From assembly GCA_964187785.1 (NCBI GenBank), contig OZ076416.1, forward strand, positions 38,874,001 through 38,938,000: 64,000 bases of DNA, in the 5' to 3' direction. The translations under genes and the position numbers were made by a program. This document shows positions 34,901 through 63,390 of the stretch, piece after piece (the stretch's first letter is position 1; each line of letters begins with the position of its first letter). The notes below the pieces were generated by a model. That model worked only from the letters and a program-made list of their open reading frames with translations. It searched no databases and was not told the DNA's origin. Source of the DNA: Amphiscolops sp. MND2022. Taxonomy: Eukaryota.

Positions 34901-35689
34901 AGTTCTAGTCGATGCTTATATAGGCGGTAATTTTCACAAAGTGGGTTCGCTTATTATGATTGAAAAGCTAAATCTTAACATTTTCTTTTAAAATTTTGAA
35001 CTCGTTGTCAGAGACGAACATGCATTATTTTTTGCCATCGGTACCCCGCAATTTTTAGATTCCTGACTGTCATGGTGTGACAACTTTGCAGTTGTCTAAC
35101 CAAAGGCGAATTACACACGATAAACGTATCATCTGATGCAATCAGTTTTTTTTCCAAAAGTTGACCATTCGCTTTTAGAGAGTAATTATTTCATGCCTAC
35201 CGAGTTTTCCATAACCCATAGCGTTGGACTAACTTTTTCTGGCCTTCAAAATGAGTCGTGGAAAATTCCTGTGGTAAACTTCAGTTTGCTCCAATTTTTC
35301 GTAGCCCCATAGTTTGCATCCTTATAAAAGAATTGGGGACATTACGGAATCGAACAGCTGTGTAGACGTAATTCGATCGCAAGATCAATTTTACCAAGCA
35401 AAATTTCCTTGTTTGAAGAGAGTTTTCTCATCCTCATCTGTGTTGTTTCATCGCAGCCTGGAAAGTATTGTTATACTTGAAGACTTAAAGTAACAGGGAG
35501 AAGTAACATTTTTCCTTCAAGAAAACGAAAGATGGTAAAGTATAACGTCATTGTAGAAATTCTTGTTTGTAGATTCTGTTGATCACTGAATGTCATTAAT
35601 TCGCGAAACGTTTCTTTCTGAAATCCAGTATCATTATCCCACAGTGAAGCATTAACTTATCGTTGATGGTGATTTGACTACATAGATAC
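31911..35689. repeat. ~2,045-bp tandem duplication (copy 1 31911-33950; copy 2 33956-35689, resuming at 55431-55738 after the LTR insertion)
   Basis: gcttcgcctctgtgtagaatg at 31911 and 33956; both copies end ttttccgctgaaacg (33950, 55738). Roughly 15 small differences seen by eye, and a 5-nt filler gaaaa at the junction. Confidence 0.93.
32400..33950 (-). pseudogene. Heavily degraded LINE ORF2 3' half inside the duplicated unit
   Basis: Minus-strand remnants KLTNFRCS...DEYHLLLNC (~32680-32830) resemble the C-terminal cysteine region of L1/Tx1/RTE-X-like ORF2. Many stops. Confidence 0.4.
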
Positions 35690-37215
35690 TGTCGCGTTAT
35701 GACTAACGCTTTAACAAACATAAGTAGGTGCTAAAGTGCAGTCTATATTTGACTAACAAATACAGAAACAAACATGAACTAGAACTAACGTTTGTTTATG
35801 GGGAAGAGAGTTGTAGATAAAGATGGCGGCCATAAGGCGGCGGCCATAACGTGGTAATAATGATGATGAAGTACTGTGACGAGAAAGGAATTGCACAAGT
35901 GAAGAATTCTATATTATACCGCGTATATTTGAAATACGAAAACAGCTATGATTGGTGGCATGTAAACCATGCCTGCTACGCAGCACACGATAAGAAATGC
36001 TTGGCTGTATATATATGGCCAACGCAGGCGAGGAGATTCATTCACTTATCGAAACGGACAGAGCTTAAACTTAATAGCTCTCGTTTCTCTTCACTTCTCT
36101 TCCACTTCTCTCCCCTCACCCCTGCTCTTCTTTCTTACTTTACCCCCTTTCCTCTCCCTTTACTATTATCTTCCCCTTCAGACTTAGAAGGTCTATTTCT
36201 CGCCTTCACTTTCAATTCCGATTGCTATCTAACTCAACAAAACTTCTTGCTTAATAACTCAGATCCAATAATTCTCTTTTAATCATACCCTTGCATCTTA
36301 AAATATTTCTCCACTCATCCTTGATTTAACTTCAACTTCCAGAACCAATCTTCCCTTAAAAGAAATTTCTAACTTAGAAATTTCTCTTCAATTTCGTCTC
36401 CGGTTTGGTGAGTCTGACTATTTAGACCTTTCAGTAGAGATTTCACTCTCTCTGAGACTTTAACTTAGACTATTTTCCGCTGATTTAAACTCGGCGGTTT
36501 CCAAAACCTTAACTTAGACTATTTTCCGCTGATTTCAATTCTGCGGTTGACCAAACTTTAGCTTAGACTATTCTTATTAGAACTAAAATTCTATGAGGTT
36601 GAAGTTACATAAACTCACATAAGAAAAGAGATGATTGAAGTTTTAAAGTGTCATATTATGAAAAAGTCTTATTGCTATTCAACTTTCTACTGAATAGAGA
36701 CATCTAAATCAAAACTCTTCCGTTTACAATAGTACGGATTTGTAAATTTTGTTTGAGAAAAAGATTTCCGAAGAAAAAGGGAAATTCTTATTATTTGTAA
36801 ATAGTTTCATTTTCTTAAATGATAAATTGTAAAAGTTATATTACTTCTTCTTGTAAAGTGAAGTTGTAATCTTTATTAATCTGAGATTTGTAACAATTGA
36901 AAGAAATATTGCTATGTCCAGAAATTGTTCACTTTCAATATTCTCAACTCATTCGTAATTAAACATATTTATTCACCATACATTTTCAGTAAACGGGAAG
37001 CTCATTTACAAACACCGCCTTGCGCGACTCACGCAATTTCTTTTGTTCGCACGTACACGCAAGGCACCCCTTTATCAGTAAGTTGCTAATTTATTTGTTG
37101 GGACTTATACTTGTTAAATCAATAACAGAACCGTCGCGAGATAGTACCTTGTAAAATGCAAACAAGGACTTGACAGATTAAAACTAATAAACAAATTTCA
37201 CCCATGCGTGCGACA
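35690..37215 (+). repeat. 5' LTR (1,526 bp)
   Basis: Direct repeat of 53901-55426 with about seven substitutions seen by eye. TG...CA ends, YY1-like AAGATGGCGG at 35820, AATAAA at 37186. Confidence 0.97.
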
Positions 37216-37218
37216 AAC

Positions 37219-37235
37219 TGGTGCGACCAGTGAGG
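37219..37235 (+). promoter_or_regulatory. Primer-binding site
   Basis: TGGTGCGACCAGTGAGG begins 3 nt after the 5' LTR. Its complement CCTCACTGGTCGCACCA ends in CCA like a tRNA 3' end; the tRNA identity is not determined. Confidence 0.75.
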
Positions 37236-38250
37236 CACCTTTTTCTCTTGTAATAGAGAAGTAAATGAGCTTTCTGTTAGAATCCCTACTCTCAGAAGTA
37301 AGGGTTAATTACTTATTTCTCTTAACATTACTTCTAATTTTCTTCTTTCTCCTACTGCCTCAATATGTGGCTTCTCTAATCTATATAAATCGTAAAACTA
37401 CTAGTAAATACTCTAACAGAATCTCTCCAGCCTAACAGCTTTCGGAAGAGTTTATGCACTACTTTTTCTTTCAATCCCCAAAACCATTTGTTAGAAATGA
37501 TTTACCTTTACGAAAATACTATGAGATTACAGTCAGTCCTAAACAAGAATGAAACTGACTCTATACGCTTTATTTAAAGGCACAGTTGGGAAATACACTC
37601 TAGTCCGGACGGACACAAATTAAGTAAAAGCCCGCCTAGGTCTCCTCGGAGGCTGTTTGAAGGCCGTGAGCCCAGTGGGTATCTTGGAACCTATGTAGCA
37701 TTCCGAGTGGGAAACCTAGTATTCTAGTGATAGTACCCAAGTGATTGCATGATAGTGATCTGGGCCCCACGCACTTAATCCTAAAGACGAGAGTAACTCC
37801 CTCTGTGAACTAGCCGTAGTTATTTTCCTAAAATTAAAGAAAGGCTCAACGAGCGGATGAAAGACCTAGTGGACTGACTGTACTCTTCATAGGTTTTCTT
37901 TGGGTTAACTCGGAGGATTAGTATACCCCGAACTACCCTTTTTACGATAATCTCAACACTAGTGGGATTTGTAAGTATCCCCTAAACTTTGGAATCAGAG
38001 TACGAAATACCGTAAATGAGCCTAACTTCGACTGAGAAGTGCTATTTTCATTTTTGCTAGCAGTGTATTAAGGATTTTATGATTTGTCAGACCTGTCTAA
38101 TAATTATCACTATTAGAATCATAGTACAAACAATTTTTACTTTAACTCTTTGCTGTTATTCTCAAAAGCCAAGAGTATCATACCTCACAGAGTCTTTGGC
38201 TTATTGTTCTTTGCTTCATCTTCTATCCTTTATAATCTCAATAGCTCACA

Positions 38251-39705
38251 ATGGCTGCGCAAAATTACTTGGCTTATCCAGACCTCGGCAGAGACCAATT
38301 CACAGGAACAGACCCAGATCAAGATCCTGAACAATTTATACAGCTAATTGAAAAGAAGTTCCGTTTCTCTCATGGTGATACCCCAGCAAACGGAGCAGCA
38401 CTTGACGACTACAACTTCAGGAGAAAATCCTACTTTGCTACACTACTAAGAGGACCAGCAGCGGAGTGGTTCGAGACAAGTATCACAGACGCTAACACCT
38501 GGCAAGAAATCAGAGAAAGGTTCATCACAAGATTCGCAGATGGCCGAAATAAATTCAGACACAGAATGGAAGCAGAACATGTCACCAGAAGAGATGGAGA
38601 AGAGATAAAGAATTTTCTACACAGAATCAAAATTGTTGTGGGGAAAGGCTGGCCAGATGATCTTGCCGGCGTCGCACAAAACGACAGAAACGCAGAAAGA
38701 GCAGCACAAGACCGACAAAGAAGACAAAGGTGCATCGACTACTCACTGAGAGGCCTAAGACCTCCAAAACTGAGAGAAAAGGCACACGAATATTTAATGG
38801 ATCACCCGAATGCAACCTGGGAACAATTCTCCCAAGCTGTAATAAACAAAGACCTCTCCTACACGGTAACTACCGCCCTAACTGGCGGAGAATCACATTC
38901 GGACCCACTCATACAAGAAATGCGAGACGACCTGAAGGGAATCAAACTACAAATCAAAGAACAGATGAATAACACAATCAACTCAGTAGAGAAAACTGTA
39001 GACCCTAATGCTACAGGTCGAAGAATGGCCACACGATTCTGTGGCTACTGCCGAACAAATGGGCACACACCTAACTGGTGCAGAAAGAAGATGAGAGATG
39101 AAGAAGTGAAGAAGGTTCAAAACGAAGCTAACCCAGAAAGAAGAATAACATTCACCAACGACTACAACAAAAGAACTGGACCTGAACATGGCTCTAGATT
39201 TCAACCAAGATTACCAGATTCAGAAATCAGAAAACTTATGGCTGTGGCACATCAACTAGCACTGGCTGGAGCTATGCAGTCAAATCCTGCCTGGAATCAA
39301 TACGATAGACCACAAAGAAAAAATTTCAACCCAGAACGCCGACCTACGAATACAAGACTCAATCCTGGTAACCGAAGATTTTCACAAGAAGGGAGAAGAC
39401 CCTTCCTAAACAATTCTAACAACTCCAGGAGTGTTTCCCCTGGACCCCAAAGAGCAAGATCTCCGTTCAACTTCAACAGAGACCAGTCTAGCTCCTTTAA
39501 TCGCAACATACAGCCTCTTCCACCAAGGAATAACTCAGTCTTTCACAGACCACTAAACAGAAACGAAAGACCAAACACCCCAACTCAAACTTACGATCAA
39601 AGGTTCCCTAAAACTAATGACATGGGAAGATCCAACACAGTACAGTTTCTCGAAACTGACTACTCGGTGAACTCTGTCTCCGATTTTCGCCCTTTAAACT
39701 ACTAA
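38251..39705 (+). CDS. gag: Gag (484 aa) with CCHC zinc knuckle
   Basis: Gypsy capsid-like N-terminus (FTGTDPDQDPEQFI...LRGPAAEWF), CGYCRTNGHTPNWC = C-X2-C-X4-H-X4-C, and an R/N/P-rich tail. Confidence 0.92.
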   Translation: MAAQNYLAYPDLGRDQFTGTDPDQDPEQFIQLIEKKFRFSHGDTPANGAALDDYNFRRKSYFATLLRGPAAEWFETSITDANTWQEIRERFITRFADGRNKFRHRMEAEHVTRRDGEEIKNFLHRIKIVVGKGWPDDLAGVAQNDRNAERAAQDRQRRQRCIDYSLRGLRPPKLREKAHEYLMDHPNATWEQFSQAVINKDLSYTVTTALTGGESHSDPLIQEMRDDLKGIKLQIKEQMNNTINSVEKTVDPNATGRRMATRFCGYCRTNGHTPNWCRKKMRDEEVKKVQNEANPERRITFTNDYNKRTGPEHGSRFQPRLPDSEIRKLMAVAHQLALAGAMQSNPAWNQYDRPQRKNFNPERRPTNTRLNPGNRRFSQEGRRPFLNNSNNSRSVSPGPQRARSPFNFNRDQSSSFNRNIQPLPPRNNSVFHRPLNRNERPNTPTQTYDQRFPKTNDMGRSNTVQFLETDYSVNSVSDFRPLNY

Positions 39706-39783
39706 GGTCTCCGAAAAATCGTAACAGCAGCACAGCCCCACTAAAATTTAGTCTTAATCTTTATTATTTTGCTGCCGGAGACC
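39693..39783 (+). promoter_or_regulatory. -1 programmed ribosomal frameshift signal (gag-pol)
   Basis: T TTA AAC heptamer in gag phase (39693-39699), a 6-nt spacer, then stem GGTCTCCG (39706-39713) / CGGAGACC (39776-39783) with inner GCAGCA/TGCTGC. The -1 frame is open into the protease. Confidence 0.85.
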
Positions 39784-42700
39784 CACAAAAAGATAGTGGC
39801 TTAGAAATCGAATTTCTACTAGACACTGGGGCAACATCTTCAATCATCACCTACAGGACCTTTAGAGAACTTTGCCAGTTTCAACAAGACCTAAAACTTA
39901 GTAGAAGCAATAACACAACACGGAACTACTCTGGGCAGATCATCCCTATGATGGGATACATCACCCTCAAACTCTACTACGATTCCGATGGACAACATAA
40001 CTTCCCATTAACAGTCTGGATAACAGAGATGAAAACCCAAAACCTCCTTGGAATGAATTTCTGCCAAGAACAAGTTAACAAAATACACTTTGATCTTCCT
40101 GGCATAGAACTCAAAAGACCTATAAATACTTTTTGCTATGGTAGCCTACAACTCAACAAATGTTACCCCTATCTATCACAAATTCTCTCAGTCCGAATTC
40201 CTCACTCAATGTATATCGAACCAAAGACGACAAGATGTTACAAATTCGCACCGGAAAACACTAATAACTCATTTCCTCCTGGATCTACGTTCCTACCGAA
40301 CAGGAAGGCAGTTTCTACTGGACTTAACTTCATTAATGTCCTCTGCACACGATTTGAGAAGACTTTACCAATCGTCATGGAAAACAACAAAAACCATACA
40401 ATCACTTTAGTAAAAGGAACTATCGGATACTCAATGCTTGACGTATTAGACCAAGAAATTCCGAAATACCAAATTAGAAACCCGACAGAACTCGCCTATG
40501 CTATCCTAAACGAAAACGAAGAATACAACGACTGTTTCCTATTACACTCTACCATCCCTTCACAAGATATGAACGATTGCCTCAGAATAGAAGGAGGAAA
40601 CTCGAAAACAATACTCAGCAGACCAGACCCTATCATCATCTTCGTCCCGGCCGACCTAAAACCAGCCAAAGGTTTCTCAAAAGGAATCCTAACGAAAATA
40701 CCTTCACTTAAGGATACATGCGCAAAACAGAAACCACAGAAAGGAGAAATCATACCCTACTGGGACGAAACTCTGAAACGATTTATATATGTTCTGATTA
40801 CGAAAGCAAAATCAAAAGACAAGATTGACCCACAATTGCTAGTTCAATCTCTCGAAACTCTAAAAGCACACGCCAAAATGAGCGGCATCAAGACTATATC
40901 CATGCTACGGGAAGCCTCAGAGCTAGAAGACTTCCAATGGCAAGACGTCACTCAACTCATTCAAGACGTATTTGCATACTCAGAAATACAACTCCGAATT
41001 TATACAAGAAACGAACTAGATGTCTATGCCATGACTACAAGAGGAGACCCCGAATACGTACTAGAAGATGAGATACAACAATTTTCCGAGCAATTTCATC
41101 TCAAACATAGAGAGCTGGAGACAGAGTTCACAAGCGACGCAAAGTCCTGTCAACCACCCTGCGATGAGCAATTTAAAATCTTCAGGCCAAAAGAAGACAA
41201 CGAACGACTGATCGAGTACTACCTTCAGTATCAAAATAAAGAAGCAGTGCGATACATTAAAGAATTCGACTTTCGCTACTCAGACCTCACAGACGAAGAA
41301 CTGGTTCTCCTAATAGACTTACTAATGGACGCAAGAGATGTATACTCCCAACACAAATTTGACGTAGGGAAAACCAGACAAAAATTTAACATTAAACTAG
41401 AACCTGGAGCAATTCTAAAGAGACAGAGACCCAGCAAAGTACCACTTCACCTACGAGAAAAGCTAGAGAAGCTACTCACACAACTCAAAGACGCTGATAT
41501 CATCAGAGAAATGGGCGACGATGAAGAAATGGGATCCTTATTTGTGAATCCTATTATACTACAACCAAAACATGACTATGTCAAGCTGATCATAGATGCG
41601 AGATATCTAAACTCGGTGACAGATCTAACAAATTATTCCTGGCCCTTAGAACCGATCCAAACCATAATGACACTAATAAATGGAAACATCTTCTCAGTAA
41701 GTGATCTCTCCTGTGCATTTCACCAAGTCCCATTAGACGAGCCCACGCAAAAACTCACCAGCTTCATCATTGGCGGAAAACAATACACCTTCACCAGGGG
41801 ATTCTATGGACTCAAGGGATTACCAAGCTTCTTTAGCAGAATGATGACTATCCACTTCGAACCCCTCATCAAAAGGAAACAGGCAATTACATACATCGAC
41901 GACACGTTGATGCAAGCCAAAAACAAACAAGAAATGTTCACGGTAATTCAAGAATACCATAACTTACTGCGGAAAGCCGGACTCAAGGCAGCACCAGATA
42001 AGACACTCTTCTTCTTAAGGAAAGTCAAGTTTTTGGGACACGTGATAGCAGCCGAAGGAATACAACCCGTAGCAAAACGAGTAAAAGACCTACACAATCT
42101 CAAATCACCAAAGACCAAAACCGAAGTGAAAAGCTTCTTAGGAGCTTTGGGCTTCTATAACTGCTACATCAAGAATCTTCACGTCGATAGTCGACCTTTT
42201 TACGAACTCACCAAGAAAGATACAAATTTTTGTTGGAACCAAGAACACGAAGACCTTTTCCAGGAAATAAAGAAAAGAATTACCGAAGACACAGTGCTCG
42301 CAATACCCTCGACAAAATACCCCTTTCACATACACGTCGACTCGTCAAACGTTGGGACAGGATGTATCCTCATCCAACAATTCCCAGAAGGGAAACGGAT
42401 CATTTCCTTCAACTCAAGAGTTTTCGCAAAGGAAGAACAAAAGATGTCCACACTACACAGAGAATTATGTGGCATAGTCTCAGCTCTTCAGACGTATGAA
42501 CACTACATCATCGGATCTCCCTTCCCCATCTACCTATACTGCGATCACAAGCCGATTCTTTATCTCTGGGGAAGAAAGGGACAAGTTTCACCCCGTTTTT
42601 TTCGGTACCAAGTAATTATATCTAAATTCCCGAATCTCAAGATAATTTGGACTCCAGGAAGCAACCTAGCCTTCCCTGATATACTCAGTCGAAACGTCTC

Positions 42701-45202
42701 CATCGAGGAACACAAGAAACATCAACTCAGTCACAAAGTCATCCCAACTGACATACACTTTTTCGACGAACATGGAACCCAAGTACACTACAAAATCAAA
42801 CACGAAGAAAATGAAGAGACATCCAAGAACGACTTTTACCCCATCTTGTACGAGAAGGGAAAAGAACGGAAAGTACTTCATCTCCAAAATGATGGGAATA
42901 ACTTCATAGTTAACTCTATCTACGAGGAACCTAACCTGCCGAAAGTAGAGTCAGCACAGAGTTGCCTCGACGCTGGAAGAGAACTTGGAAAATTCGAAGA
43001 ACTAAGAATCAGGTCTGGAACACGGGATAGCACATCGGATTTATCACAAAACACTTACAGCTCCATCAACAGTGATACGGATGACGAAGCCCTCACAGAC
43101 AATCAGAGTCATGAAATTAACGAGACCAACTACGAGCTCAACACAGAAGATCTCATCGCGCGTAACCCAGGTCTTCCCAAAAACGCAAAGGCAATAGAAC
43201 ACCTCGATCTACCTACAAATTCAACTGAAAAACAAAAGACACCAACACAGGAACTCGTCAGACAACTTGATAAACTATCCAAAGAAGTAGAACTAAACGT
43301 TACAACGATCTTACAAGAACAAATAAATGACCCGGTACTCAGCGTAGTCCGACAATGGGTAAGAACAGGAAACAAACCCGAACCAAAGTCACCAGAGTTA
43401 CAACACTCAAAAGGCCTCATGCGTTACTTTCAGGAATTCGACAGATTATCTATAGAAGGCCAAGGAAACCTCCTTTGTTATAACGAGCCAACTGATGACC
43501 CAACAGACGAGAATCTGAGAATCTGTCTACCCCTCTCTCTATTTTTAGCTTGCTTTCGTATGGGACATTACAACGACCTCGGCGGCCACATGGGAGCAGA
43601 AAAGACCTTCCTCAATGCTAAGAGATTTTACTACTGGCCAGGGATGCACAACTGGATCTGTGCCCTCACACAAGATTGTGTTAGCTGCCAATCTAACAAA
43701 TCCAAACAACGGAGAAACAACGAAGTCCCACTGGAAGACTGCGAAACCGAAACTCAAGTATTCAGAACCATCCACATTGATCACAAAGGACCACTCAATC
43801 CTCCCAGTCGTGGAAATTCACATTGCCTTCTGATCATCGACGCCTTCTCACGTTACCTGATGGCATACCCAGTCAGAGACACAGGAGCACAATCTACAAT
43901 CAACGCGATGGAAAAATGGATTATGCACTATGGCATCCCTCAATCTATCGTACATGATAGAGGAACAGCTTTCGTGAACACTGAATTCGTCAATTGGGCT
44001 AAAGAGTTTGGCATTACACTTCGACCAAGAACCGCACACTCACCCTGGACAAATGGCAAAGTGAAACTCAAAATCAACACATTGCAAGATACTGGAGAAA
44101 CTTCTTAAACGAATCAGGAAACAACTGGGCCCAACTAGCTGCCAAATTTGCATTCGCCCACAACACAAGCATCAACTACACAACTGGAAAGACCCCCTAC
44201 GAGATAGTGTTTTGCAACAAACCACAGATACCTATGAGTCTGAAGCTGGGACTCTACAGGAACAAAAACAAGAACTGCAAATCACAATTCTGTCAAGGAT
44301 TACCTCCTCATTGCCATAGCGAAAACCAAGTCAAAAACGAACTACTAAATGGACTATTACGACCACAACTATCACAAAGCTTATTGGAACGAGAAACAGC
44401 CTTCAAAAAGGTCTACTCATCCACATACGAAAAGTGCAGAAAACAAACAGCTCAATCACACGCCTACAGGAACAGATTTAAACTTGGAAACCACCTCAAC
44501 ATAGGACAAAAGGTTCTGCTAGAAAACCATAGAAAAGATCTCTCCAAAAGCGAAAAACTCCAACAACTGCGACTAGGACCCTTTACGGTTACCAAACGAA
44601 TTACAAATACAACCTACCAAATAATAGAAGATCAAAACCCCGAGAATCTCCGAACTGTACATAGGAATCATCTAATAGAATACTTTCCTAAAGAAGAAAC
44701 ACTCCCCCCTCTTATCGAAGAATACACTACTCCCCACCGTGGAGACACGGATTTTTATAACAATCTTGTCAAAGGAAGAATTGAACAACTTAATGTTTCA
44801 GAACCACAAAAACTCGGAGACCTCTGCATATTGCCAGTACGGAATCAACAAAACCAAATACTTGCCCGCAAAAGAACGCAAACCCCCCAGAGCACAGACT
44901 CTGGTATCATCTCTCCAGAAAATCAGTTGTTGTCAACTCCCAAGACCCCCGATCAGCCTTCTACATCACATCCTCAAAACGCAGCAACCCCTATCCTGAC
45001 ATTAACTCAACGTCAACCAACTCCAGCACCCCCAACTAACACCCCGGCATCTTCTACCAAGTCAACGACTCCCTTGCAAGAATTACGAAGAGCCGTTGCC
45101 CGCCAAATAGAGAGAAATCCGCGTTATCAGCGAGCACAACCCAATCAACCAGCGCTACAGTCCATACTTCGTGAAAGGACTAGAATTGGTTACAAAGAAT
45201 AG
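39693..45202 (+). CDS. pol: Pol polyprotein: protease, dUTPase-like remnant, macrodomain, RT, RNase H, integrase; 1-nt frameshift at ~44063
   Basis: LLDTGA (39822-39830); YIDD (41892-41903); RNase H HVDSS/RELCG/CDHKP; integrase HHCC (GGHMG...CVSC), IHIDH, HDRGTAF and NGKV(E). After the frameshift the reading continues ETQNQHIARYWRNFL...TPYEIVF...LGPF (GPY/F motif) to the stop at 45202. Confidence 0.93.
40600..41006 (+). other. TARG1/OARD1 (Poa1p-like) macrodomain embedded in Pol
   Basis: RFIYVLITK...SLETLKAH...ISM...QWQDVTQLIQDVF..SEIQLRIYT parallels human OARD1 RYIYYLITK...SLEAMKSH...LSM...QWENVSAMIEEVF..TDIKITVYT (recalled sequence). Confidence 0.8.
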
Positions 45203-45209
45203 CCTTACT

Positions 45210-45605
45210 ATGCCGTGCCATAAAGTCTATCTAAACTTACCTTGGCAAGTCCCGCGAGAACTCCAGTCCTTAGGAGTCCTACAGGTTACGATTACTAAAA
45301 TCTACTGGACCTACAAAAACAAAATAGTTAGAATTTGTTTCTACTCCAACGACCCAGATCCTAGCCCACATAAACAACCTACGCCTAGAAAATCTAACCT
45401 TCATATACACCCAGAGTCACCTACTTTCATATCAACACTTAGCCTATATCAAGACTTAGCCTATTATGCCGTCACCCACCATGACCCTATCCTAGAGGAA
45501 CTCCTATCCTACATGCCTACCCTGATACCTGACCTACAACCTTCATTACCTAACACCCAAAAAGACTTATTCTGCTGTTCTACTATCTCCTCGCCTAGCT
45601 CCTAG
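45210..45605 (+). CDS. Small accessory ORF A (131 aa), unknown function
   Basis: ATG 7 nt after the pol stop, with the same A/C-rich composition as gag-pol. Apparent similarity to ORF 49589-49933. Confidence 0.55.
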   Translation: MPCHKVYLNLPWQVPRELQSLGVLQVTITKIYWTYKNKIVRICFYSNDPDPSPHKQPTPRKSNLHIHPESPTFISTLSLYQDLAYYAVTHHDPILEELLSYMPTLIPDLQPSLPNTQKDLFCCSTISSPSS

Positions 45606-47615
45606 CCGGATATTACCGCTTATTTGAAAAATATTATCTTTATTATTATTATTATAACGATTAGACCATATATGTACATAGAAAACGCAAAAAAAGTGTG
45701 TCATAGGAAGTCCGAACTCCAAAATACGGGTGTACATAGAGAGTTTCTCAACTTGGGAAGTTATATTCACACTGCAGCAAAAACAAATATAAACCATCAA
45801 ATAGTGTCCAAATACAAGGCTGCATGCACAGAGTTGGAAATTTCCGCCGGCTGGTTGATGAGATAACCAACCACCACTCAGGACGCTCTATGACATCATT
45901 CGTTCACGCTGGAAACGCGTTTGCGCTGCCGTTCAGCGTACCACTCATCGAATTGCGTAATCAGTCTTGTTTGTCTTCATTCCGAGACATTAAACGGGCA
46001 CTTTTCAGTTTTATTATTTTTTGATATCTTTTCTTCTACGGTTTTTATTTTCACATTTCTACTAACGTTCCAAAAATTCAACGATTGAAATTATTAGACA
46101 ATTTTTGGCCCTTAAGTTACAAAGAAGCCTCAGATCGAAAAACCAGCGTTTTAAGAGGAATTTAAAATGGACGTGGGTTCATAAAACATCCTTGTTGCCC
46201 CGGACACTCCACTGATTCGATTTACAAGCCCTGGACTTGCGACAAAGGCACTAATTGACAACATTTTGAAGTCAAACCCTTGTTCACTGCCAGTGTTGGA
46301 TTTACTCGACTCCCGAATTGACGCAAATTTATCGTCAAAACTTGTTAATAATATTACTGGAGAGCATGTAATACAAACTCCACCACCAAGCGAAACTTCT
46401 GAGCCAACTCCCGAAGCTGAACAAGCTGAAAAGAAACAAAAAAAAGTAATGAAACCAAAACAGTGTTTTATCAAACAGCGTCAGTTTTGACCCTACATGC
46501 CGAGTTTCTTTGTCAGCACATCAAGACGACCAAAATCGCAGACTGTGTTGTGAAGGGGATTCGGGTCGTATTGAATTACATCTTCGGTATTACGGGTATG
46601 CTATGTTATAGCATCAAATTGTTTCTTTCTATTCTGAATGTTAATCATACAGCGTCTTACATGTTCAGCAAAAACTAGAAATTACACGGTATTACGGTTT
46701 AGGCGAAGGAACCTCTCAAGACTGTCCAGACAGAGAGTCGATCGAGGAACAAGATGAGATTCACTTTGATTCCCTTTATGTCTTTTCTTGGCGAAACTCG
46801 GGACTTACTCGACAGTTAATCGTAGAGTGATAATTATTAGAGTCGCCTTGACGTAATATGTCCTTTCAAAGGGCGTTTGGCTTGACGCCATTTCATATTT
46901 TTCCAAGAGTCAGCTGCCGTTTTGGCACGCTAACCTTTTTCGCAATTAGTCAGTTCAGAAAAACATAACCGGACACTTCATCGGAAGTTTTTCAAAAAAT
47001 CAGGAAACATTTACATTCGCATTTGCTACATGACACACAACCAAAAATTGGTAGAATACGAGAAAAATATGCTTAAAAACCTAAAAACAGAACATTACTT
47101 GCATAATACGATGCCTAAACATTGTTTTGTTGATGTTAGTAAGCATCATTGGCTTACAAGTGCAAATATAAAAGAGTTATATTATTAAATACCCTTGCCA
47201 CGTAAGGACTGAAAATTAGTGCTCAAAACATTTTAAGCCAAAACTTGAAAATGACACTCCCATTTTGGGCTCAAAAGATATATTTCGTTGGGATTTCACC
47301 CAATGTAAACATTGGTATAAGTTTTAATACTCTATTTTAAACCGTTAAAAAGAAACAGAGTCAGGAAAAGAGCATTCGCAAAAAAATGGGGGCTTTTGTA
47401 TTCATTAATTGTCCTATAATATTAGTTTTTGAGTCATATATTGTCTGATAATCGAGAACCAAAATCATCTAGTCTAATAGAGAGTCTAATAGTTAAAAGG
47501 TTGAGACCGTCACCAGGCCATAAGTGTAGCATAAGAATTGAATAGAAACAGTGTAGAATGCTGTTAGAATTGCTGTCTAGTATGCGGAATGAAATGAACA
47601 ACGAATGAGAAGCTG

Positions 47616-47668
47616 TGACGTCAGAATTAGATTAGGTCACGTGACCTCCGATAATCCCCGCTGGGCGG
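47616..47668. promoter_or_regulatory. Internal promoter-like motif cluster
   Basis: CRE TGACGTCA (47616-47623), palindromic E-box GGTCACGTGACC (47635-47646) and GC box GGGCGG (47663-47668), in an AT-rich non-coding stretch. Confidence 0.45.
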
Positions 47669-48061
47669 ACATAAAGAATCTAATAATATCAAATAACAAG
47701 TAATAAATGTTTTCGGCCTTGAAAAGAATGTTAATCAAGACTTAGACCTTTGGAAAATATTGCAATTGTAATCTTATCACACCCAACTATGTTGGCATAT
47801 ATTTTTTGAGAAACGAAACTCTTGCTATTTTTAAACATTTGCGAGTTAATTTTTTCCGCTAGGACATAGAGAGTCTGGCATGTCACAGAGAGTCTGAATA
47901 ATATTAAAAATTTGTACATAGAGAGTCTAATAAAAGTTATTATTATTATTAGACTTTTTATCTATACAATTTGTGCAACCCCGAGAAGGAACTTACGAAA
48001 AGCAGCAAACACAAAAGCGTAGAAAAATAAAGTATTTCCTGGAGATGAGAGGCAATAATGC

Positions 48062-48703
48062 CTACTCAATCTCCAGGAAACCGCCCCTCTCGGCAAGCTT
48101 CCGCAGCTGAGCCGCCCGCTCTTGCATAGACCATACAGAATAGAGACGCATCCACTGTCCCCGCTCAAAACCAGTGAGTTGAGCATAGCCACGGATATAT
48201 GCTCGTAATTGGAAAATGACCATCTCCCCTATGGGTGACAGCAGAGTTCCCTCCCACCTGGCTCCCCAGTTTGCCCGGAGGAAACTAATCAAAGGGTTAG
48301 GAATGGGCGCTACAGGAACAGCGAATCCCGGTGTTCCCCGAAGAGAACTCGCTATATTCGCCCAATTTTCCAGCCTGTCTATATCTCTCATAGTAAAGAG
48401 ATTCAAGAAGTGTTGGAGGCTGGAGTCCTCCAAACTCCCCTGAGCCATGGTGACAGACCCAGCCTGCGGGGCTACAGTACCCACAAGCGACCCAGAAGAC
48501 GCAGGTGCAGCGCGGGCTCCAGATGATGAAGTAGTAGACGAGCCCCCACGAGCTCCAGCGGACGACGACTGCCCAGCCACGGAAGGCCTCACAGAAGACG
48601 AAGACGTCCCACTAGCCGACACTACACCAGTAGAGGAGGACCCCGCAGATGTAGTGGACGCGGAAGTTGAAGGGCCACCTCCTTGCTCCTCATCCGTTGT
48701 TGC
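48062..48703 (-). CDS. Antisense accessory ORF (Ser/Gly/Thr-rich N-terminus, ~120-aa Trp-containing domain); start uncertain (first ATG at 48448)
   Basis: 214 stop-free codons in a GC-richer block with sharp AT-rich borders. Globular-looking C-terminus LQHFLNLF...RANWGARWEG...GQWMRLYSVW. Confidence 0.55.
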   Translation of the reverse strand, partial: ATTDEEQGGGPSTSASTTSAGSSSTGVVSASGTSSSSVRPSVAGQSSSAGARGGSSTTSSSGARAAPASSGSLVGTVAPQAGSVTMAQGSLEDSSLQHFLNLFTMRDIDRLENWANIASSLRGTPGFAVPVAPIPNPLISFLRANWGARWEGTLLSPIGEMVIFQLRAYIRGYAQLTGFERGQWMRLYSVWSMQERAAQLRKLAERGGFLEIE

Positions 48704-48982: not shown

Positions 48983-49204
48983 ATGATCATAATATTCAAA
49001 ATCGACAACCGACTTTCCCAGATCACTGACATTCAGAAGGAACCCTCAACACAGAACATAATCATACAAGCCTATGCAATCGCAGAGGAAGTGAGTGAAA
49101 CCTACACGTGTGTGCCAGCATCACCTATCTACCCACTACTGGAGAGTCTACTATATAATAACACTACTACCGAAGTCTTCACAAGAGCCAAGTCAGTCCT
49201 TTAA
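48983..49204 (+). CDS. Small accessory ORF (73 aa; upstream part possibly degraded)
   Basis: Its TAA overlaps the next ATG (TAATG at 49202-49206). Confidence 0.45.
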   Translation: MIIIFKIDNRLSQITDIQKEPSTQNIIIQAYAIAEEVSETYTCVPASPIYPLLESLLYNNTTTEVFTRAKSVL

Positions 49205-49599
49205 TGTCCTCTCCCGCAGTTGCCGTATTTCGAGGAAATAAGTACTACTTCCACACTCAATTTCAACCTCCGGTTCCTTGGAAACCTATACAACTCACGG
49301 GTGAATACGAAATACAGTCAATCTTTTACGAGATCACTACCTCGGCGATACAAGTCCGTATACTCACACCAGAAGACAAAGAAGCACTAGTCCTCTTCCC
49401 TATTCACTTCGGGTCCAAGGAATACGCCTACCTATTCCTATCGTTCCAACAATACATACTCCAACACCCCGCTGTCCTTAAAGACAAGGCTTTCGACGGC
49501 TTGGTTTATTTTATGGATATCACCCTAGTAACTAACCCCTTTGAAGAAGAGGTTAGAATCAAATATCTTCACACCCTAGTTGAGACCTATGATGTTTAA
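49204..49599 (+). CDS. Small accessory ORF B (131 aa), unknown function
   Basis: ATG-initiated, protein-like composition, overlapping both neighbouring ORFs. Confidence 0.65.
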   Translation: MSSPAVAVFRGNKYYFHTQFQPPVPWKPIQLTGEYEIQSIFYEITTSAIQVRILTPEDKEALVLFPIHFGSKEYAYLFLSFQQYILQHPAVLKDKAFDGLVYFMDITLVTNPFEEEVRIKYLHTLVETYDV

Positions 49600-49933
49600 A
49601 ATACAACTCAAATTCCTCTGGCGTCACCCGGAAACAAACACACTTCTTGAGATCCTCTCTATAGCCTGGAAAGAGAGCGCCCTCGCACTTCAGATTGAAC
49701 TCCACAGCCTCCGACCACATCAAACGGGACATTGGCTCATCCCTGTCGCCACAGACTCGACAGAAGCAGCAGATCTTGCGAAGGCGCTAACCGAATACAG
49801 GCAGATCGCTTACTTAGATCACGTTCACCCTCTGACCCTTCATCTCCTCAGCAAGTTAATCGATTTTCTCGACGCTCAGGGACGTAACAAACACTCTCCC
49901 AGTCTAAAATCAATCAGTGATAACTACAGCTGA
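49589..49933 (+). CDS. Small accessory ORF C (114 aa), unknown function
   Basis: ATGATG overlaps the last 11 nt of ORF B; similar motif pattern to ORF A. Confidence 0.65.
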   Translation: MMFKIQLKFLWRHPETNTLLEILSIAWKESALALQIELHSLRPHQTGHWLIPVATDSTEAADLAKALTEYRQIAYLDHVHPLTLHLLSKLIDFLDAQGRNKHSPSLKSISDNYS

Positions 49934-50158: not shown

Positions 50159-52306
50159 ATGAAATTATTTTACTTACTCTTTTTATGCGCCCATTACGCG
50201 CCCGTTGTGATATTACAACGTCCAACGCCAAACCTCGCTAGCGTTGCTAAAAAACTGCGAGTAACTCATTTCGACTGCGGCGAAATGACCCAAAATAAAC
50301 TCTACGCATTGAATCAAGTTGAACAATGCAATGTGGCACCTGAAAACTTAGAGGTAAGTCGTGCGAGCGTAACGTTATACACTAAACATTTCCGCCGCAC
50401 TATCAACGCCACTATGTGCCGTGTGAAACATCAGAGTGAAGAATGGCATTGTGGTTATCACGACCACTCCAGTATGTCAATCCTACACGACAGAATCACC
50501 AGCGATCTTTCCCTGTCACCCGAAACCTGCAAGGCAATGGGTGAAGGCAAAGAAGTCATAATCCATGGACAACCCCTCAAATTTAAGAAAGGAGTGAAAC
50601 AAGTACAGACGAGAAACGCCAAATACGGAAAGAGTTGGGACGGTGTACGCGACCCAGATACCCGAAATGAATGCAAGACAGGTGGCTGGATCAAAAGAGA
50701 AACATTCGAATCTCACATCCAAGATGCTGAATTATCAGTAAAAACTCGAGATGGAAAAGTCCTGACTCCTTTTCAGATGGTCCTTCCCTGCCCCTTAGAA
50801 CAACTAGGTTGCGAAACGACGTCACTGGACCCATACGCCTACACATGGGCGGAGCCCGATAATTGCGTGCTTGCAGTACATAGGAAAGAAATCGTGAACA
50901 TGATCAAACACGGATCTAACTATTATATTGTAAGCGGCAACGACTCCACTACCAAATTTTTATTCGAAGTCTACAACAGACCACAAAAGTATTGCAACAA
51001 ACCAGACGATGTATACCCGACCAACTGCGAATCCCTGTACGTTTCAATCCAACTTGGTGGCTTCGACATGACGTCCGGCAGACGACTCGGCATCTCCATG
51101 GGAGAGACATCTAAACTACAATACTATTCACCCGAAGATGGTTCTGGTAATGGCCGACTCCACCTCTTTTGAGGCCCGAGCGACCCCAACCCTAATACAC
51201 CTCATTACCTCAACATGGATTACGAGTTACACCAAGGGACAAAGCTTGATTATCTCTTCTTTGAGAGCACTCGTCTCCTCGAAGCCTCAGAAATCCAACT
51301 CCTCAAAGCTCAATGTGAACAAGAACGAACTCAAATCCTCACTATCTTGATGTTATCAATGGAAAATCCTCGCCTCGCCGGATACATGCTCACGGGAAAT
51401 CGCTCTATGTTCCTGAACACAGATGGCAGCCTCGCTTGGCTCTACCACTGTCCGGAATCCCACTCACCTCTTCACACGATGAACCGATGCTACGACCGCA
51501 TACCCATCTTCTACAAAGGAGTGGTTGCCTTCGTGGACCCAATCACCCGACAGACCTATCCTAACGCGAACGCCCAAAATTGCAGCGATCGCATTAAGAA
51601 CCTCTTTCAATTGGATATGGAAGACAAAGACTCCTGGTTTACCCTCACTCCTTCACCCGAACATCGCGACCGACCTGCTATCTTCGGACCCAAAGACATA
51701 CAACCAATGATTACTAGATCCTTCCCTGGTTCACAAGACGCGGGAATGTACACGCCTAAACAACTCTCAGAATTTTGGGACAACATCCTCATCAGCGCAG
51801 CGTCTCGCAACGCCCTCCAGAAGTTCTCACGAGAGCTCATCACACCCTCAATGGCCCATAGTGGACCTGAATCATTCGCGTATTATGCACCCCGTACCGA
51901 TTTTTATGTTGACGGCATGATATCACCCGGTTACTTCAAAAATCAGTTCCTTGAAACATTCGGAAGTATATCTTACGTACTAGAACTTTGCGGCGCGTAT
52001 TTTGGCGCCTTTCTTTTCATTAAGTTCGTAATAGATATCACGGTACTCGTCTTCCGATACTTTGAACTTCGTCACCTTACAGGTAATACACTGAGCTTCA
52101 CTAAAACATTGCTCAGTGCTTCGTACAATCTTTTCTTTACCTCAGTTTTAACTTCTGTATTCACCCCGCGGGCCCCTTACGAGGATAGCGTTGAAGATAA
52201 AAACGCGAAAATTGAAGATAATGGAAAAGAAGTAGAACTCCAAGCACTGAAGAAAAAGGAAGAATCACTTTATCCCTCAGTACAGAGCTTCGTAGCTCCA
52301 ATATAA
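50159..52306 (+). CDS. env: Envelope-like glycoprotein resembling chuvirus/Monjiviricetes class III fusion proteins; one in-frame TGA at 51170-51172
   Basis: Signal peptide; cysteine pattern HFDC..LNQVEQC..ATMCRVK..WHCGYHDH..PETCKAM; N-glycosylation sequons NAT, NDS, NCS; C-terminal TM segment (~51975-52055). The two ORF-track segments are in the same frame, separated by one stop. Confidence 0.82.
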
Positions 52307-52352
52307 AGCCAAAAACATTTTCAAGTTCATTCATTTATTAGTTTACTTTTAG

Positions 52353-52934
52353 AATCTAGAACCACTATTCGACCTACCAAGCCTGGATGACGATACCCTG
52401 GATCCTATCCCAGAAAGTGACCTAGAAATCGAACCACTATCTCCTTCAGACTTTTTGACACCAGACTCGTCTACAACAATTACCTTTCTTCCAGACCCTC
52501 CTGACTCAACGGTCCCATCATCACCCTCAAAATCTCCAACTCCAACTTTCACACCTACGCCATCCGACCAACTCCCCTTTCCTTTGTCATTCACAGGAGA
52601 CATACCACCAATCCCGTCCGCACAACATCCTCCTAGATTTGGTGGAAAGGACATCAGAAGAAACACACCACAAAAACACTATTATGAATGGAACAACAAG
52701 ATAGCCGATGAAGCACCCTTACAGAAGCAACATAAAAGGGAATACTTCACTAGAAGAGCCAGATACGTTAAAAAACCTAGATTTAACGCGAACCTAAAGT
52801 ATTCTCTACTCCCACAGTTTTCAACCTGGAAAATCGTCTTTTGGGACAACAAAAGACAAGAATACACTATTGAGAACCCTGCACTGAAGGGACAGCGGCT
52901 GACAGTTCCCTTAAGATCCATATCTGCACAATGA
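52353..52934 (+). CDS. ATG-less ORF (193 codons; acidic and Pro/Ser/Thr-rich, then basic), probably a spliced exon
   Basis: The frame opens exactly after a polypyrimidine tract and TAG (tttacttttag, 52342-52352). No in-frame ATG; its TGA overlaps the next ATG (ATGA at 52931-52934). Confidence 0.55.
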   Translation, partial: NLEPLFDLPSLDDDTLDPIPESDLEIEPLSPSDFLTPDSSTTITFLPDPPDSTVPSSPSKSPTPTFTPTPSDQLPFPLSFTGDIPPIPSAQHPPRFGGKDIRRNTPQKHYYEWNNKIADEAPLQKQHKREYFTRRARYVKKPRFNANLKYSLLPQFSTWKIVFWDNKRQEYTIENPALKGQRLTVPLRSISAQ

Positions 52935-53863
52935 GCCAAAAATTAAACCCAAATGCCACCCCCTTCATCCCAAAACACAACCCCTACCTACCGAACCCTA
53001 ACCCCGACTGGCCACCCATGCCTGAAGAAAACGATCAAGAAGAACATGCAAACCTCGAAGGAGTGGAAAGACTAAATATGTGGATTAGTGAATGGGAGAA
53101 ATCAACTAGTACCTATAACCAGGGAACAAAAAGCACACCGCTTCGAAAGTCCTTCCCTTTAACGGACATTAATCAACCCCAAAAGAAGTTAGAAAACCGA
53201 ATCAAACTGCTATGTACCTCAATCGAAGAGGCACGAGATAAACGTCAACAATTGGAAGTCACTATCTTCGATTTGCTTGCGACAATCAAACACCAAAGCT
53301 CCCTCCTCAGCAGCCAGATTGAAGCGAACGGTAAAGATTTTATCACTTGGCAAGTTTCCGCCTTCTCCACACTTTACCGAAAAGCAAGGACCTCTCCAGA
53401 CGATCCGTTTCACAACATCAAAAACAGCTTCGCGAGCCCTATTTACCCAACATACCTATCAGGCTGCAAAATTTCCTTCAGAATATTCCCTTACGGGATA
53501 AACATCTTCCGTGGGACCCACTCTTCTATTAGCTGTGAACTTCATTATAGCGACTTCACTCACCCACAAACATGGCCCTTTGATAAAACAGTAGAAGTCG
53601 AAATCCTTGATCAGAAGGACGAAGGCAACAAGTGGTCCGCACTTTTCCCAATCAACCCCCACAACCACGAAGATACCCTTCACAATCTCTACACGCACCT
53701 GAACCTCCTCAAAGAAGACTTCATCCCTCATACGAAGTTACTTGTCAACTTCAGAGAAGCATTCCTAAACAATGACTCTATAATATTTAGAATCAAATTT
53801 AAAGAACCTTCCCCTAAGTCACTCGCGCTACATAACTCCCCCTCCTTTCAGTCTGACCCATAA
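52931..53863 (+). CDS. PAM2-motif + coiled-coil + TRAF-C/MATH domain protein (310 aa)
   Basis: N-terminal SQKLNPNATPFIP (PAM2-like) and heptads at ~53175-53325. TRAF-domain landmarks FITWQV, SFASP..SGCK, GTHSS, WPFDKTVEVEILDQ and NDSIIFRI at ~53330-53810. No RING or Zn fingers. Confidence 0.85.
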   Translation: MSQKLNPNATPFIPKHNPYLPNPNPDWPPMPEENDQEEHANLEGVERLNMWISEWEKSTSTYNQGTKSTPLRKSFPLTDINQPQKKLENRIKLLCTSIEEARDKRQQLEVTIFDLLATIKHQSSLLSSQIEANGKDFITWQVSAFSTLYRKARTSPDDPFHNIKNSFASPIYPTYLSGCKISFRIFPYGINIFRGTHSSISCELHYSDFTHPQTWPFDKTVEVEILDQKDEGNKWSALFPINPHNHEDTLHNLYTHLNLLKEDFIPHTKLLVNFREAFLNNDSIIFRIKFKEPSPKSLALHNSPSFQSDP

Positions 53864-53888: not shown

Positions 53889-53900
53889 AGGGGGGTGAGC
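53889..53900 (+). promoter_or_regulatory. Polypurine tract
   Basis: AGGGGGGTGAGC immediately before the 3' LTR. Confidence 0.75.
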
Positions 53901-55426
53901 TGTCGCGTTATGACTAACGCTTTAACAAACATAATTAGGTGCTAAAGTGCAGTCTATATTTAACTAACAAATACAGAAACAAACATGAACTAGAACTAAC
54001 GTTTGTTTATGGGGGAGAGAGTTGTAGATAAAGATGGCGGCCATAAGGCGGCGGCCATAACGTGGTAATAATGATGATGAAGTACTGTGACGAGAAAGGA
54101 ATTGCACAAGTGAAGAATTCTATATTATACCGCGTATATTTGAAATACGAAAACAGCTATGATTGGTGGCATGTAAACCATGCCTGCTACGCAGCACACG
54201 ATAAGAAATGCTTGGCTGTATATATATGGCCAACGCAGGCGAGGAGATTCATTCACTTATCGAAACGGACAGAGCTTAAACTTAATAGCTCTCGTTTCTC
54301 TTCACTTCTCTTCCACTTCTCTCCCCTCACCCCTGCTCTTCTATCTTACTTTACCCCCTTTCCTCTCCCTTTACTATTATCTTCCCCTTCAGACTTAGAA
54401 GGTCTATTTCTCGCCTTCACTTTCAATTCCGATTGCTATCTAACTCAACAAAACTTCTTGCTTAATAACTCAGATCCAATAATTCTCTTTTAATCATACC
54501 CTTGCATCTTAAAATATTTCTCCACTCATCCTTGATTTAACTTCAACTTCCAGAACCAATCTTCCCCTAAAAGAAATTTCTAACTTAGAAATTTCTCTTC
54601 AATTTCGTCTCCGGTTTGGTGAGTCTGACTATTTAGACCTTTCAGTAGAGATTTCACTCTCTCTGAGACTTTAACTTAGACTATTTTCCGCTGATTTAAA
54701 CTCGGCGGTTTCCAAAACCTTAACTTAGACTATTTTCCGCTGATTTCAATTCTGCGGTTGACCAAACTTTAGCTTAGACTATTCTTATTAGAACTAAAAT
54801 TCTATGAGGTTGAAGTTACATAAACTCACATAAGAAAAGAGATGATTGAAGTTTTAAAGTGTCATATTATGAAAAAGTCTTAATGCTATTCAACTTTCTA
54901 CTGAATAGAGACATCTAAATCAAAACTCTTCCGTTTAAAATAGTACGGATTTGTAAATTTTGTTTGAGAAAAAGATTTCCGAAGAAAAAGGGAAATTCTT
55001 ATTATTTGTAAATAGTTTCATTTTCTTAAATGATAAATTGTAAAAGTTATATTACTTCTTCTTGTAAAGTGAAGTTGTAATCTTTATTAATCTGAGATTT
55101 GTAACAATTGAAAGAAATATTGCTATGTCCAGAAATTGTTCACTTTCAATATTCTCAACTCATTCGTAATTAAACATATTTATTCACCATACATTTTCAG
55201 TAAACGGGAAGCTCATTTACAAACACCGCCTTGCGCGACTCACGCAATTTCTTTTGTTCGCACGTACACGCAAGGCACCCCTTTATCAGTAAGTTGCTAA
55301 TTTATTTGTTGGGACTTATACTTGTTAAATCAATAACAGAACCGTCGCGAGATAGTACCTTGTAAAATGCAAACAAGGACTTGACAGATTAAAACTAATA
55401 AACAAATTTCACCCATGCGTGCGACA
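53901..55426 (+). repeat. 3' LTR (1,526 bp)
   Basis: Same length and termini as the 5' LTR, followed by the ATAC TSD. Confidence 0.97.
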
Positions 55427-56330
55427 ATACAGATTTGAAGACAGTGTATTTTTCAATGATGGAAACAAATTAGGTCAAGTTGATAATCATCATTAGTGCC
55501 CAATCCTATTCTTGAAAGTTTTGTATCTATGTCAGGAATAAAGTAGTAGAATTTGATGGTGTTTCAGAAATTCTTTTGAGCGCCTTCACAGCTGAATTTT
55601 TTAACTTCAAATTGTCGTGGGCAACTTCTGTTTTTCTAAATCTATGTCAAAATATCAACATGTGAAAAAATCTGAAAAGGAAACCATAATATTGCATTAT
55701 CAAGATCCTAATTACCTATTTTCTTTTCCGCTGAAACGTAACACTGCAAGACTTACGTTTTTAGTCGGCGCTTTTAAAATAAAAGAGCCCGACTATTACA
55801 TTCGTTTTTTTGTTTTGCTTTAAGACAGTCTCGAATGCGACCAAATTTTCGTTCAACTAAACGAATACCCATGAAACGCATCTAAATTAGTGCAAAGCCT
55901 CCCACCTTTCATTTTTCACTTTTTAAACGTAACATACAAAACCAGACGAGACTGAAGGCCCCCTTCCAGTTTTTTTTGGCATTGCGACTTTTCGATTTTT
56001 TTTGTCTCCAAAGGGTCCCCTCGTAATGTCCGGAGTAAAGTGCTATATCCGAACTTATGACGTTATATCCGAACTATATTGCGTTTTATTAAGGACAAGC
56101 CTGAGGTTCGAAAACAGGAGTTTTTCACGAAAACGTCCTACGCATCTTTTGAAGACGGCGCTTTTGGAGCATTAGATTTAGCGCCGACTTGAGACGTTCC
56201 CGTCTTGTTAGATTGCGTGATATGACTTCTTTGATCATGCCCACTAATCACCGCTGAATTAGCAGCACAAGTGTAACAATGTTTTGAATGGGACTATCAA
56301 TGGGCCATCAATGTCTTTCTTCTAGATGTG

Positions 56331-57521: not shown

Positions 57522-58046
57522 GTCAGTTTGATTTCTAAAAAAGTATACAATATCAAACATCATCCGTATTGTCAGAAACAGAGGCTGCATCTTTAGGGAT
57601 GGGATGTGCGGAGTGACTTCCTATCAAGTGACTTCCTATGTATGGACTTTCAATTTTTTCCGCACTGAAGTTTAGGTGGTACCTTTTGCTCAATTTTTAG
57701 TCATGCAAAGTTATTGAATCATGTAAAGTTATCGAATATATAAATATTTGAAAATTTTAAATCACAAAGTTTGTGATCTAGTTTTTTCTTCAATTTTTCA
57801 TAAATTGCCAGGATAGAAAGAGCGATATCAATCGTTATACAAACGCGATCTGTGAAAATAACCGATAGCGATTTTCAAAATGAAGAAGACGCTAGCGAGT
57901 ACTGCTACGAACAGCAGGTTGAAGATATCTAAAAGTTTTTTTGGGAAATTCCCTAACAATTTTTTCTCTCTGAGGTTGTTAAAACTATTCAAACAAGCCG
58001 GGGACGGCTTAAGTCGGTGTCTCATCTAATGTTCAAAAAGCGTAAA

Positions 58047-58368
58047 GCGACAATTCGTCCCATATTCTAATAAGCGACAATTCGTCCCAAGCATCAATTC
58101 GTCCCATTTTGAAAACGCGACCATTCGTCCCCTTTTAACTAATAGGGTCTTTTTGGCAAACTGGATAATCTTTCAAATTCTTCAATTTTTCAAAACTAGT
58201 ACATTGAAAGGTTATTGATTAGCTGATCAATTAAAGAATTTAGGACCAATGGTCGCTTTTCACAATTGGGACGAATTGTCGCCTTTTCAAAATGGGACGA
58301 GCTGCCGCTTGGGACAATTTGTCGCCTTTTGGTATTTGGGACAAATTGTGGCTTGGGACGAATTGTCG
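58047..58368. mobile_element. Foldback element built from inverted 17-bp GCGACAATTCGTCCCAA units
   Basis: Forward units at 58047-58130 and inverted TTGGGACGAATTGTCGC units at 58266-58368. The core is related to 63391-63939. Confidence 0.7.
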
Positions 58369-63220: not shown

Positions 63221-63390
63221 ATCTGGTGTTTCTTCCTGCCTATTTGTTTTTTTTGCGTCAAATGCAATATCATTGAAACACTAGGAATATATTTTATTCT
63301 ACCGAAAGTCTGGATCAGTTCGTTGGGCGCATTTTTGAGTGATCGTCTGTAGTTTACCGCAATAACCTCCTTGTCGGGTATTCTCGTAAA

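Follow-up and report, generated by a model that had tools for sequence, protein, structure and literature searches.

We think it probable that the gene at 50159..52306 on the forward strand of the window (the 64,000-nucleotide stretch of DNA analysed here) is the envelope (env) gene, interrupted by a stop codon, of a recently active Ty3/Gypsy retrotransposon, and that its product is a likely fusogen long associated with the pol lineage of that element. This is the best explanation of the anatomy of the element, its multi-copy state, the selection acting on env, the co-divergence of env and pol, and the family and fold matches of the encoded protein. The pairing of env with Gypsy has already been published, so that the family described here adds a data point rather than a concept; it is useful in being young and abundant, with env and pol co-diverging inside a single genome.

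The element and its copies

The element carrying env is a Ty3/Gypsy LTR retrotransposon that measures 19.7 kb from LTR to LTR and has the following features.

35686..35689, forward: 5′ target-site duplication, ATAC
35690..37215, forward: 5′ LTR, 1526 bp, TG...CA
37219..37236, forward: 18-nt primer-binding site that pairs with the 3′ end of a host tRNA-Met(CAT)
38251..39705, forward: gag, 484 aa, Pfam Retrotrans_gag E 1.3e-05
39693..39699, forward: TTTAAAC heptamer directly before the gag stop; pol overlaps gag in the -1 frame
39660..45202, forward: pol, with protease, macrodomain, RT, RNase H and integrase with a C-terminal SH3-like part
45210..45605, forward: 131-aa small ORF without a family match; dN/dS 0.09–0.19 in four comparisons
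45656..47936, no strand assigned: nested non-coding repeat of ~2.3 kb, inserted into a run of TTA and foreign to the family
48062..48703, reverse: antisense ORF, Ser/Gly-rich N-terminal part, no family match; dN/dS 0.10–0.46, dS near saturation
48983..49204, forward: small ORF, 73 aa, no Pfam match; its stop codon and the following start overlap (TAATG)
49204..49599, forward: small ORF, 131 aa; dN/dS 0.095 and 0.28 (two informative of four comparisons)
49589..49933, forward: small ORF, 114 aa, overlapping the preceding 131-aa ORF
50159..52306, forward: env, 715 codons, for a class III (chuvirus/gB-type) fusion glycoprotein; the window copy has an in-frame stop at codon 338
52353..52934, forward: Pro/Ser-rich frame of 193 codons that lacks an ATG and whose stop overlaps the start of the TRAF-like gene (ATGA); dN/dS 0.10–0.25
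52931..53863, forward: TRAF-like gene, 310 aa, with a PAM2-type motif, a likely helical middle and a MATH/TRAF-C domain
53889..53900, forward: polypurine tract, immediately before the 3′ LTR
53901..55426, forward: 3′ LTR
55427..55430, forward: 3′ target-site duplication, ATAC

The sequence-only reading had taken the gene for the env of a Gypsy element, and this is borne out by the LTRs, the primer site and a Ty3-nearest RT that surround it. The two LTRs are 99.54% identical (7 mismatches in 1528 aligned columns). A 16-mer from the primer site occurs exactly 326 times in the genome, against 0 for the control; 11 tRNA-like T-loop matches were found in the genome, and ARAGORN called a tRNA-Met in one of the three loci scanned. 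The pol domain order is protease–RT–RNase H–integrase, and RT is closer to Ty3 than to retroviral enzymes: the closest solved relative of the RT–RNase H part is Ty3 RT (E 1.5e-30), followed by the chain Pr125Pol (8e-23), and the frames of the element matched no Pao-specific Pfam family. The heptamer before the gag stop is a likely ribosomal frameshift site; the 11-mer around it was present in 7 of 71 loci, all of them close copies.

The window copy is broken in three ways, by the stop in env, by a frameshift in the integrase that splits pol into the frames 39660-44108 and 44003-45202, and by the nested 2.3-kb repeat, which together with the other ORFs places env 4.96 kb behind pol. The repeat is absent from all six sister copies compared at the DNA level, and sister copies are 17.8–18.0 kb long (five measured; ~17.9 kb), with env ~3 kb behind pol. 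Uninterrupted ORFs are a property of the family and not of this copy: a 719-codon env frame is open in 21 of the 25 copies at ≥98% identity, in a genome search that scored 119 of 5420 candidates. All 12 elements compared, the window's included, are flanked by a repeat pair of 97.9–100% identity, some of these pairs covering only part of the LTR. The family is young, recently active and present in many copies.

Selection on env is purifying. The Nei-Gojobori dN/dS was 0.043–0.084 between the window and four close elements and 0.025–0.085 in three other pairs; among eight deeper comparisons one gave 0.12 and seven gave no ratio, because dS is saturated beyond ~85% RT identity. For the two 131-aa ORFs, the 114-aa ORF, the antisense ORF and the frames behind env, dN/dS was 0.06–0.3 in most comparisons. 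The 114-aa ORF gave 0.06–0.18 against three diverged elements and 0.49 against a near-identical copy, the latter on eight changes.

Several other features of the window were noted. The element sits in the second unit of a ~2.05-kb tandem duplication (31911-35689, 55427-55741), 99% identical, the first unit of which shows the empty site; further near-identical tandem duplications, with periods of ~1.2–2.3 kb, lie at 18811-21428, 5648-9359 and 25938-28495. Each LTR contains a 148-codon open frame (35836-36282, 54047-54493) with no Pfam match. The nested repeat at 45656-47936 has imperfect inverted ends and 41 matches elsewhere in the genome, one of them 99.8% identical at an unrelated site, and its TTA target presumably recalls DNA transposons of the PIF/Harbinger type. 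The region of the antisense ORF (47937-48696) is ~81% identical to sister copies and unalignable over its last 300 bp, its flanks being 97–98% identical, and is likely a mosaic produced by recombination between subfamilies. At 58045-58368 and 63371-63939 lie two foldback elements, related to each other and made up of 17-bp subrepeats, and a 94-codon frame at 59892-60176 has a possible resemblance to an exon of a tRNA-splicing endonuclease subunit.

The env gene and the fold of its product

The env ORF runs in a single frame from the ATG at 50159 to the TAA ending at 52306, interrupted by an in-frame TGA at 51170-51172. The product of the window copy would be 337 residues long, without the central helix and the membrane anchor of the modelled protein, so that this copy could not yield a working fusogen. 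A second copy (L068, G000:C4:47.6 Mb), ~2% diverged and free of the nested insertion, has TGA at the same env codon, through either shared descent or recurrent mutation.

When the stop codon is read through as X, the protein has the layout of a type I membrane glycoprotein, with an N-terminal hydrophobic segment, an ectodomain and a C-terminal anchor, as judged from hydropathy and model helices. The anchor and the sequons noticed in the sequence-only reading were both found: there are four sequons (N83, N261, N414, N474), and a hydrophobic stretch at about 601–637 (maximum 2.09), followed by a polar tail, coincides with model helices at 603–641. The signal peptide of that reading is predicted from hydropathy, the N-terminus being hydrophobic (Kyte-Doolittle 19-mer value 1.8 at residue 1). 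Its cysteine motifs FDC, V..C, C.V and C..M are all present, and a fifth, 'CG..H', was unmatched, the protein having CGYH. Of 17 cysteines, 13 are conserved in all 12 env proteins compared from other elements of the same genome, which were chosen for their long open frames; C172 is conserved in 10 of these 12 and C290 is private to the window copy, whilst C10 and C611 sit within the hydrophobic ends. The protein sequence contains no furin-type R-x-x-R site.

The claim that env encodes a chuvirus-like class III fusion glycoprotein stood up to both profile and structure comparison. A single Pfam family matched, Monjiviricetes_fusion (PF24664, E 6.6e-32), and its score of 110.7 bits against a cut-off of 27 makes a chance match implausible; 55 of 56 aligned relatives match it as well. 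An AlphaFold model based on this 56-sequence alignment (mean pLDDT 73.6, pTM 0.45) has long beta hairpins, a 48-residue helix at 355–402, a beta-rich part and membrane helices. In a Foldseek search of the PDB all 40 matches listed for this model are herpesvirus gB, the best at E 2.6e-13. Among predicted viral structures the top matches (E 9.8e-32, 17% identity) are the glycoproteins of Tacheng tick virus 4 and dermapteran chu-related virus 142; those of xinmo-, qin-, chu- and rhabdo-like viruses come next.

Since whole-chain TM-scores of the env model were only ~0.2, residues 58–312, corresponding to domains I and II, were folded alone, giving a model with a pLDDT of 91.5. Against the best 14 viral matches listed, this model had TM-scores of 0.45–0.56 at 11–16% identity, with a xinmovirus at the top. 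VIA-align, which does not depend on Foldseek, placed HSV gB first (Z 8.7, rmsd 9.7, 216 aligned), a Z-score barely above the level that VIA-align calls common; CMV gB, rabies G and Chandipura G came next, and Thogoto GP and GP64 scored Z 4.7–4.8, among PH domains. The full-length fold match thus rests on local structure together with the domain I-II model. In that model a PH-like domain holds an inserted fusion domain, elongated and of beta structure, and a long central helix (355–402) is combined with conserved cysteines, the disulfide pattern being judged from cysteine conservation. As for the candidate fusion loops, which in class III proteins are hydrophobic and sit at the tip of domain I, the loop after C98 is conserved and polar, and the second is rather polar and differs between families.

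The models and the profile match together place the env protein in the chuvirus/gB type of class III fusion glycoproteins; it is neither baculovirus-F-like nor a host protein. The term 'chuvirus-like' applies in a wide sense only: the protein matches the Monjiviricetes fusion family and chu-like G proteins are the nearest predicted viral folds of the full-length model, as expected of a descendant of a Jingchuvirales glycoprotein, and the family is wider than the chuviruses. At the level of sequence, the PDB gave no match to the env protein or to the 56-sequence profile, env matched nothing in phage records or viral contigs, and the matches to env or to a distant relative included no named virus sequence; a search started from that relative reached two proteins only. 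One relative, 60% identical, lies on a 2.5-kb metagenome contig and others, at 27–43% identity, lie on other public contigs, and none of the 20 clusters looked up has an annotated name. No nucleoprotein or RNA polymerase family was matched by 28 frames from the window and related elements.

The known class III fusogens (herpesvirus gB, rhabdovirus G, Thogoto GP, baculovirus GP64 and the G proteins of chuviruses, xinmoviruses and qinviruses) share with env the modelled domain I-II fold, and the long central helix and type I membrane topology recur in the env model, although identity is only 9–17%.

Role and origin of env

Intact members of the family would probably use env as follows. The protein would be made from a subgenomic RNA, enter the secretory path by way of its predicted signal peptide and become glycosylated; it would then trimerise and coat budding virus-like particles, which would fuse with new target cells. 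These might be cells of the germline, by analogy with the soma-to-germline entry of Drosophila errantiviruses.

A true class III glycoprotein could also be kept for something other than cell-free infection, such as cell-to-cell transfer, the fusion of adjacent cells with one another or a block to entry by related elements. The purifying selection on env would fit any membrane function, the candidate fusion loops look polar, the second copy is stopped at the same env codon, and the entry mechanism of gB-type elements is itself stated to be unknown in the survey of Chary and Hayashi (2026; PMC13524379). We nevertheless regard a non-infectious role as unlikely, given that an open env is kept by 21 of the 25 young copies and by all the families examined, in each case within complete elements, and that ectodomain, anchor and tail are all conserved.

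How env came to be joined to this pol was addressed with elements fetched around env matches of decreasing identity, the C-terminal half of env being compared with RT. Among close elements the RT/env identities (in per cent) were 98–100/98–99, 95–98/94–95 and 85/78, and among distant ones 77–79/69–71, 75/66–67, 64/46 and 44–45/39. Over 11 elements, then, env and RT diverge in step down to 45% RT identity. Trees of the two proteins, built solely from elements of this genome, both contain (window,E,F), (H,I), (J,K), (H,I,J,K) and (N,O) as groups, with no conflicts; the RT tree is weakly resolved, with two of eight branches starred and G and M unplaced. A phylogeny had been proposed as a check on the earlier reading, and within this scope its congruence speaks against a fresh capture. 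These comparisons suggest that the association of env with pol is likely old, and Chary and Hayashi (2026) likewise argue that env diverged along with pol from an ancient origin.

Another reading is an exchange between retroelements, in which env was acquired by an old recombination from a BEL/Pao element or another Gypsy clade of the same host lineage, and not from a virus. Glycoproteins of this type are indeed carried by BEL/Pao elements as well as by several clades of Gypsy, and their exchange among elements of one host order has been proposed (PMC13524379). Against this, every PF24664 element examined that showed pol had a Gypsy-type pol matching that of the window, and Pao-linked copies were not seen among the top candidates scored; such a swap therefore seems quite improbable to us. 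That this Gypsy lineage captured a chuvirus (Jingchuvirales) glycoprotein separately and fairly recently is very unlikely, because the co-divergence of env and RT would not result from such a capture, and because env is only 11–17% identical to virus proteins, matches xinmo-, qin- and rhabdo-like proteins about as well as chu-like ones, has relatives at 27–43% identity on other public contigs, and is common to elements whose RTs are only 45% identical, with an env tree that tracks RT.

The proposal of an independent capture is thus not supported, and the novelty of the pairing must be given up, as gB-type env genes in Gypsy elements are on record. Env-carrying Gypsy elements, with env of the F type or the HSV/gB type, have been reported across animals (Chary and Hayashi, 2026; PMC13524379); in the table of that study 221 of 1512 elements are of the gB type, and the Chuviridae-like glycoprotein of mosquito BEL/Pao was also found to adjoin gypsy pol, those baits recovering 114 elements. 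A gB-type env on a multi-copy Gypsy gag-pol is an example of this published type and not a new one.

Accessory genes and comparison with known elements

The cargo is the less ordinary side of the element. A TARG1/OARD1-like macrodomain lies in Pol before RT, at about 40590-41030 (E 6e-12 against human OARD1); a dUTPase-like part between the protease and the macrodomain has no Pfam support. Four small sense ORFs and one antisense ORF separate pol from env, the antisense frame measuring 213 codons from stop to stop and, in one sister copy, 231 aa when counted from Met. Neither the small ORFs nor those that follow env in the two most distant families matched a Pfam family. The two stop–start junctions, TAATG and ATGA, are kept in close elements; the TAATG overlap is found in the window and three other close elements, and also in two distant ones with other small ORFs. 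Relatives of the ATG-less 193-codon frame start with Met in more distant families. A pyrimidine run ending in AG at 52335-52360, just before that frame, may be a splice acceptor. The TRAF-like gene matches MATH_2 (E 6.3e-09) and TRAF-mep_MATH (E 2.4e-08), with PAM2 (E 0.009) below the cut-off; its nearest PDB entries are TRAF5/4/2 (best E 2.3e-06), Pfam matched no RING domain in the protein, and the genome holds at least 150 copies of the TRAF domain. The PAM2-type motif (52931-52970) is present in the window and four close elements and absent from four more distant ones.

The macrodomain, the TRAF-like gene and the frame preceding it occur in all families examined at RT identity ≥75% and not in the families at 64% and 45%. 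The two most distant env families (L046:7641-9200 and L052:7999-9486) have a 519-aa or 495-aa ORF behind env and no macrodomain or TRAF-like gene. A tentative reading, which we hold as possible but somewhat short of probable, is that this is a lineage of 'complex' invertebrate retroviruses, in which a class III env is joined by a stable, host-directed accessory kit, the kit having been added step by step to a simpler gag-pol-env ancestor that the genome still contains. The kit would comprise a TARG1-like ADP-ribose eraser in Pol, a TRAF decoy devoid of RING, an antisense gene and small ORFs linked through stop–start overlaps; the decoy would have gained its PABP-binding motif in the youngest branch, and the genome would hold a series from simple to complex. 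Should host defence be the target of the TRAF-like gene and the macrodomain, they would be a pointer to the pathways that this animal uses against retroelements.

A literature search found no gypsy retrotransposon with an ADP-ribose 'macro domain' (in the two-word spelling) and no published description of the layout in which a macrodomain and small ORFs are joined to a TRAF-like gene behind env; for TRAF cargo in retroelements, Burro was the only precedent found. The words 'macro' and 'TRAF' are absent from the main text of PMC13524379, and a 12-mer of the window's primer site does not appear in its table. Short peptides gave nothing in its supplements, in which no full sequences are visible, and the family may thus already belong to that catalogue.

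The closest published counterparts are the 'ancient errantiviruses' with an HSV/gB-type ENV (PMC13524379), which likewise have an LTR gag-pol-env structure, a tRNA primer site and many near-identical copies. Their ENV resembles ours in its signal peptide, anchor, conserved cysteines, lack of an obligatory furin site and divergence with pol. The family described here has, in addition to what is reported for those elements, the macrodomain, five small ORFs and the TRAF-like gene. The first filter of the published screen allowed gaps of 1 kb and a length of 10 kb, whereas the window family is ~17.9 kb long with env ~3 kb behind pol; cargo-rich elements may therefore be undercounted, since so long a layout would likely be missed by such length filters.

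The mosquito Pao element Anakin (Dezordi et al., 2020; PMC7642597) is likewise an LTR retrotransposon with a glycoprotein of chuvirus type between similar LTRs. It is, however, a BEL/Pao element of insects, for which capture from Chuviridae was inferred by phylogeny, whereas the window element belongs to Gypsy. Gypsy fragments beside such glycoproteins were later described with no clear capture (Dezordi et al., 2023; PMC10084718).

The cargo parts, finally, have precedent in the giant planarian Gypsy elements Burro and GYPSM1 (Arkhipova and Yushenova, 2019; PMC6431247), because Burro combines MATH_TRAF cargo with a mononegavirus-like env. Like the window element, it is a large Gypsy with a MATH_TRAF_C domain, in one species as a separate accessory ORF, and with an env region that matches mononegavirus fusion glycoproteins. 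The arrangement differs: in Burro the env part is placed between gag and protease, in frame, within a polyprotein of ~5000 aa, whereas the window element has its env as an ORF of its own behind pol, and the cargo reported for Burro includes BIR, BCL2 and ankyrin, where the window element has its TRAF-like gene behind env.
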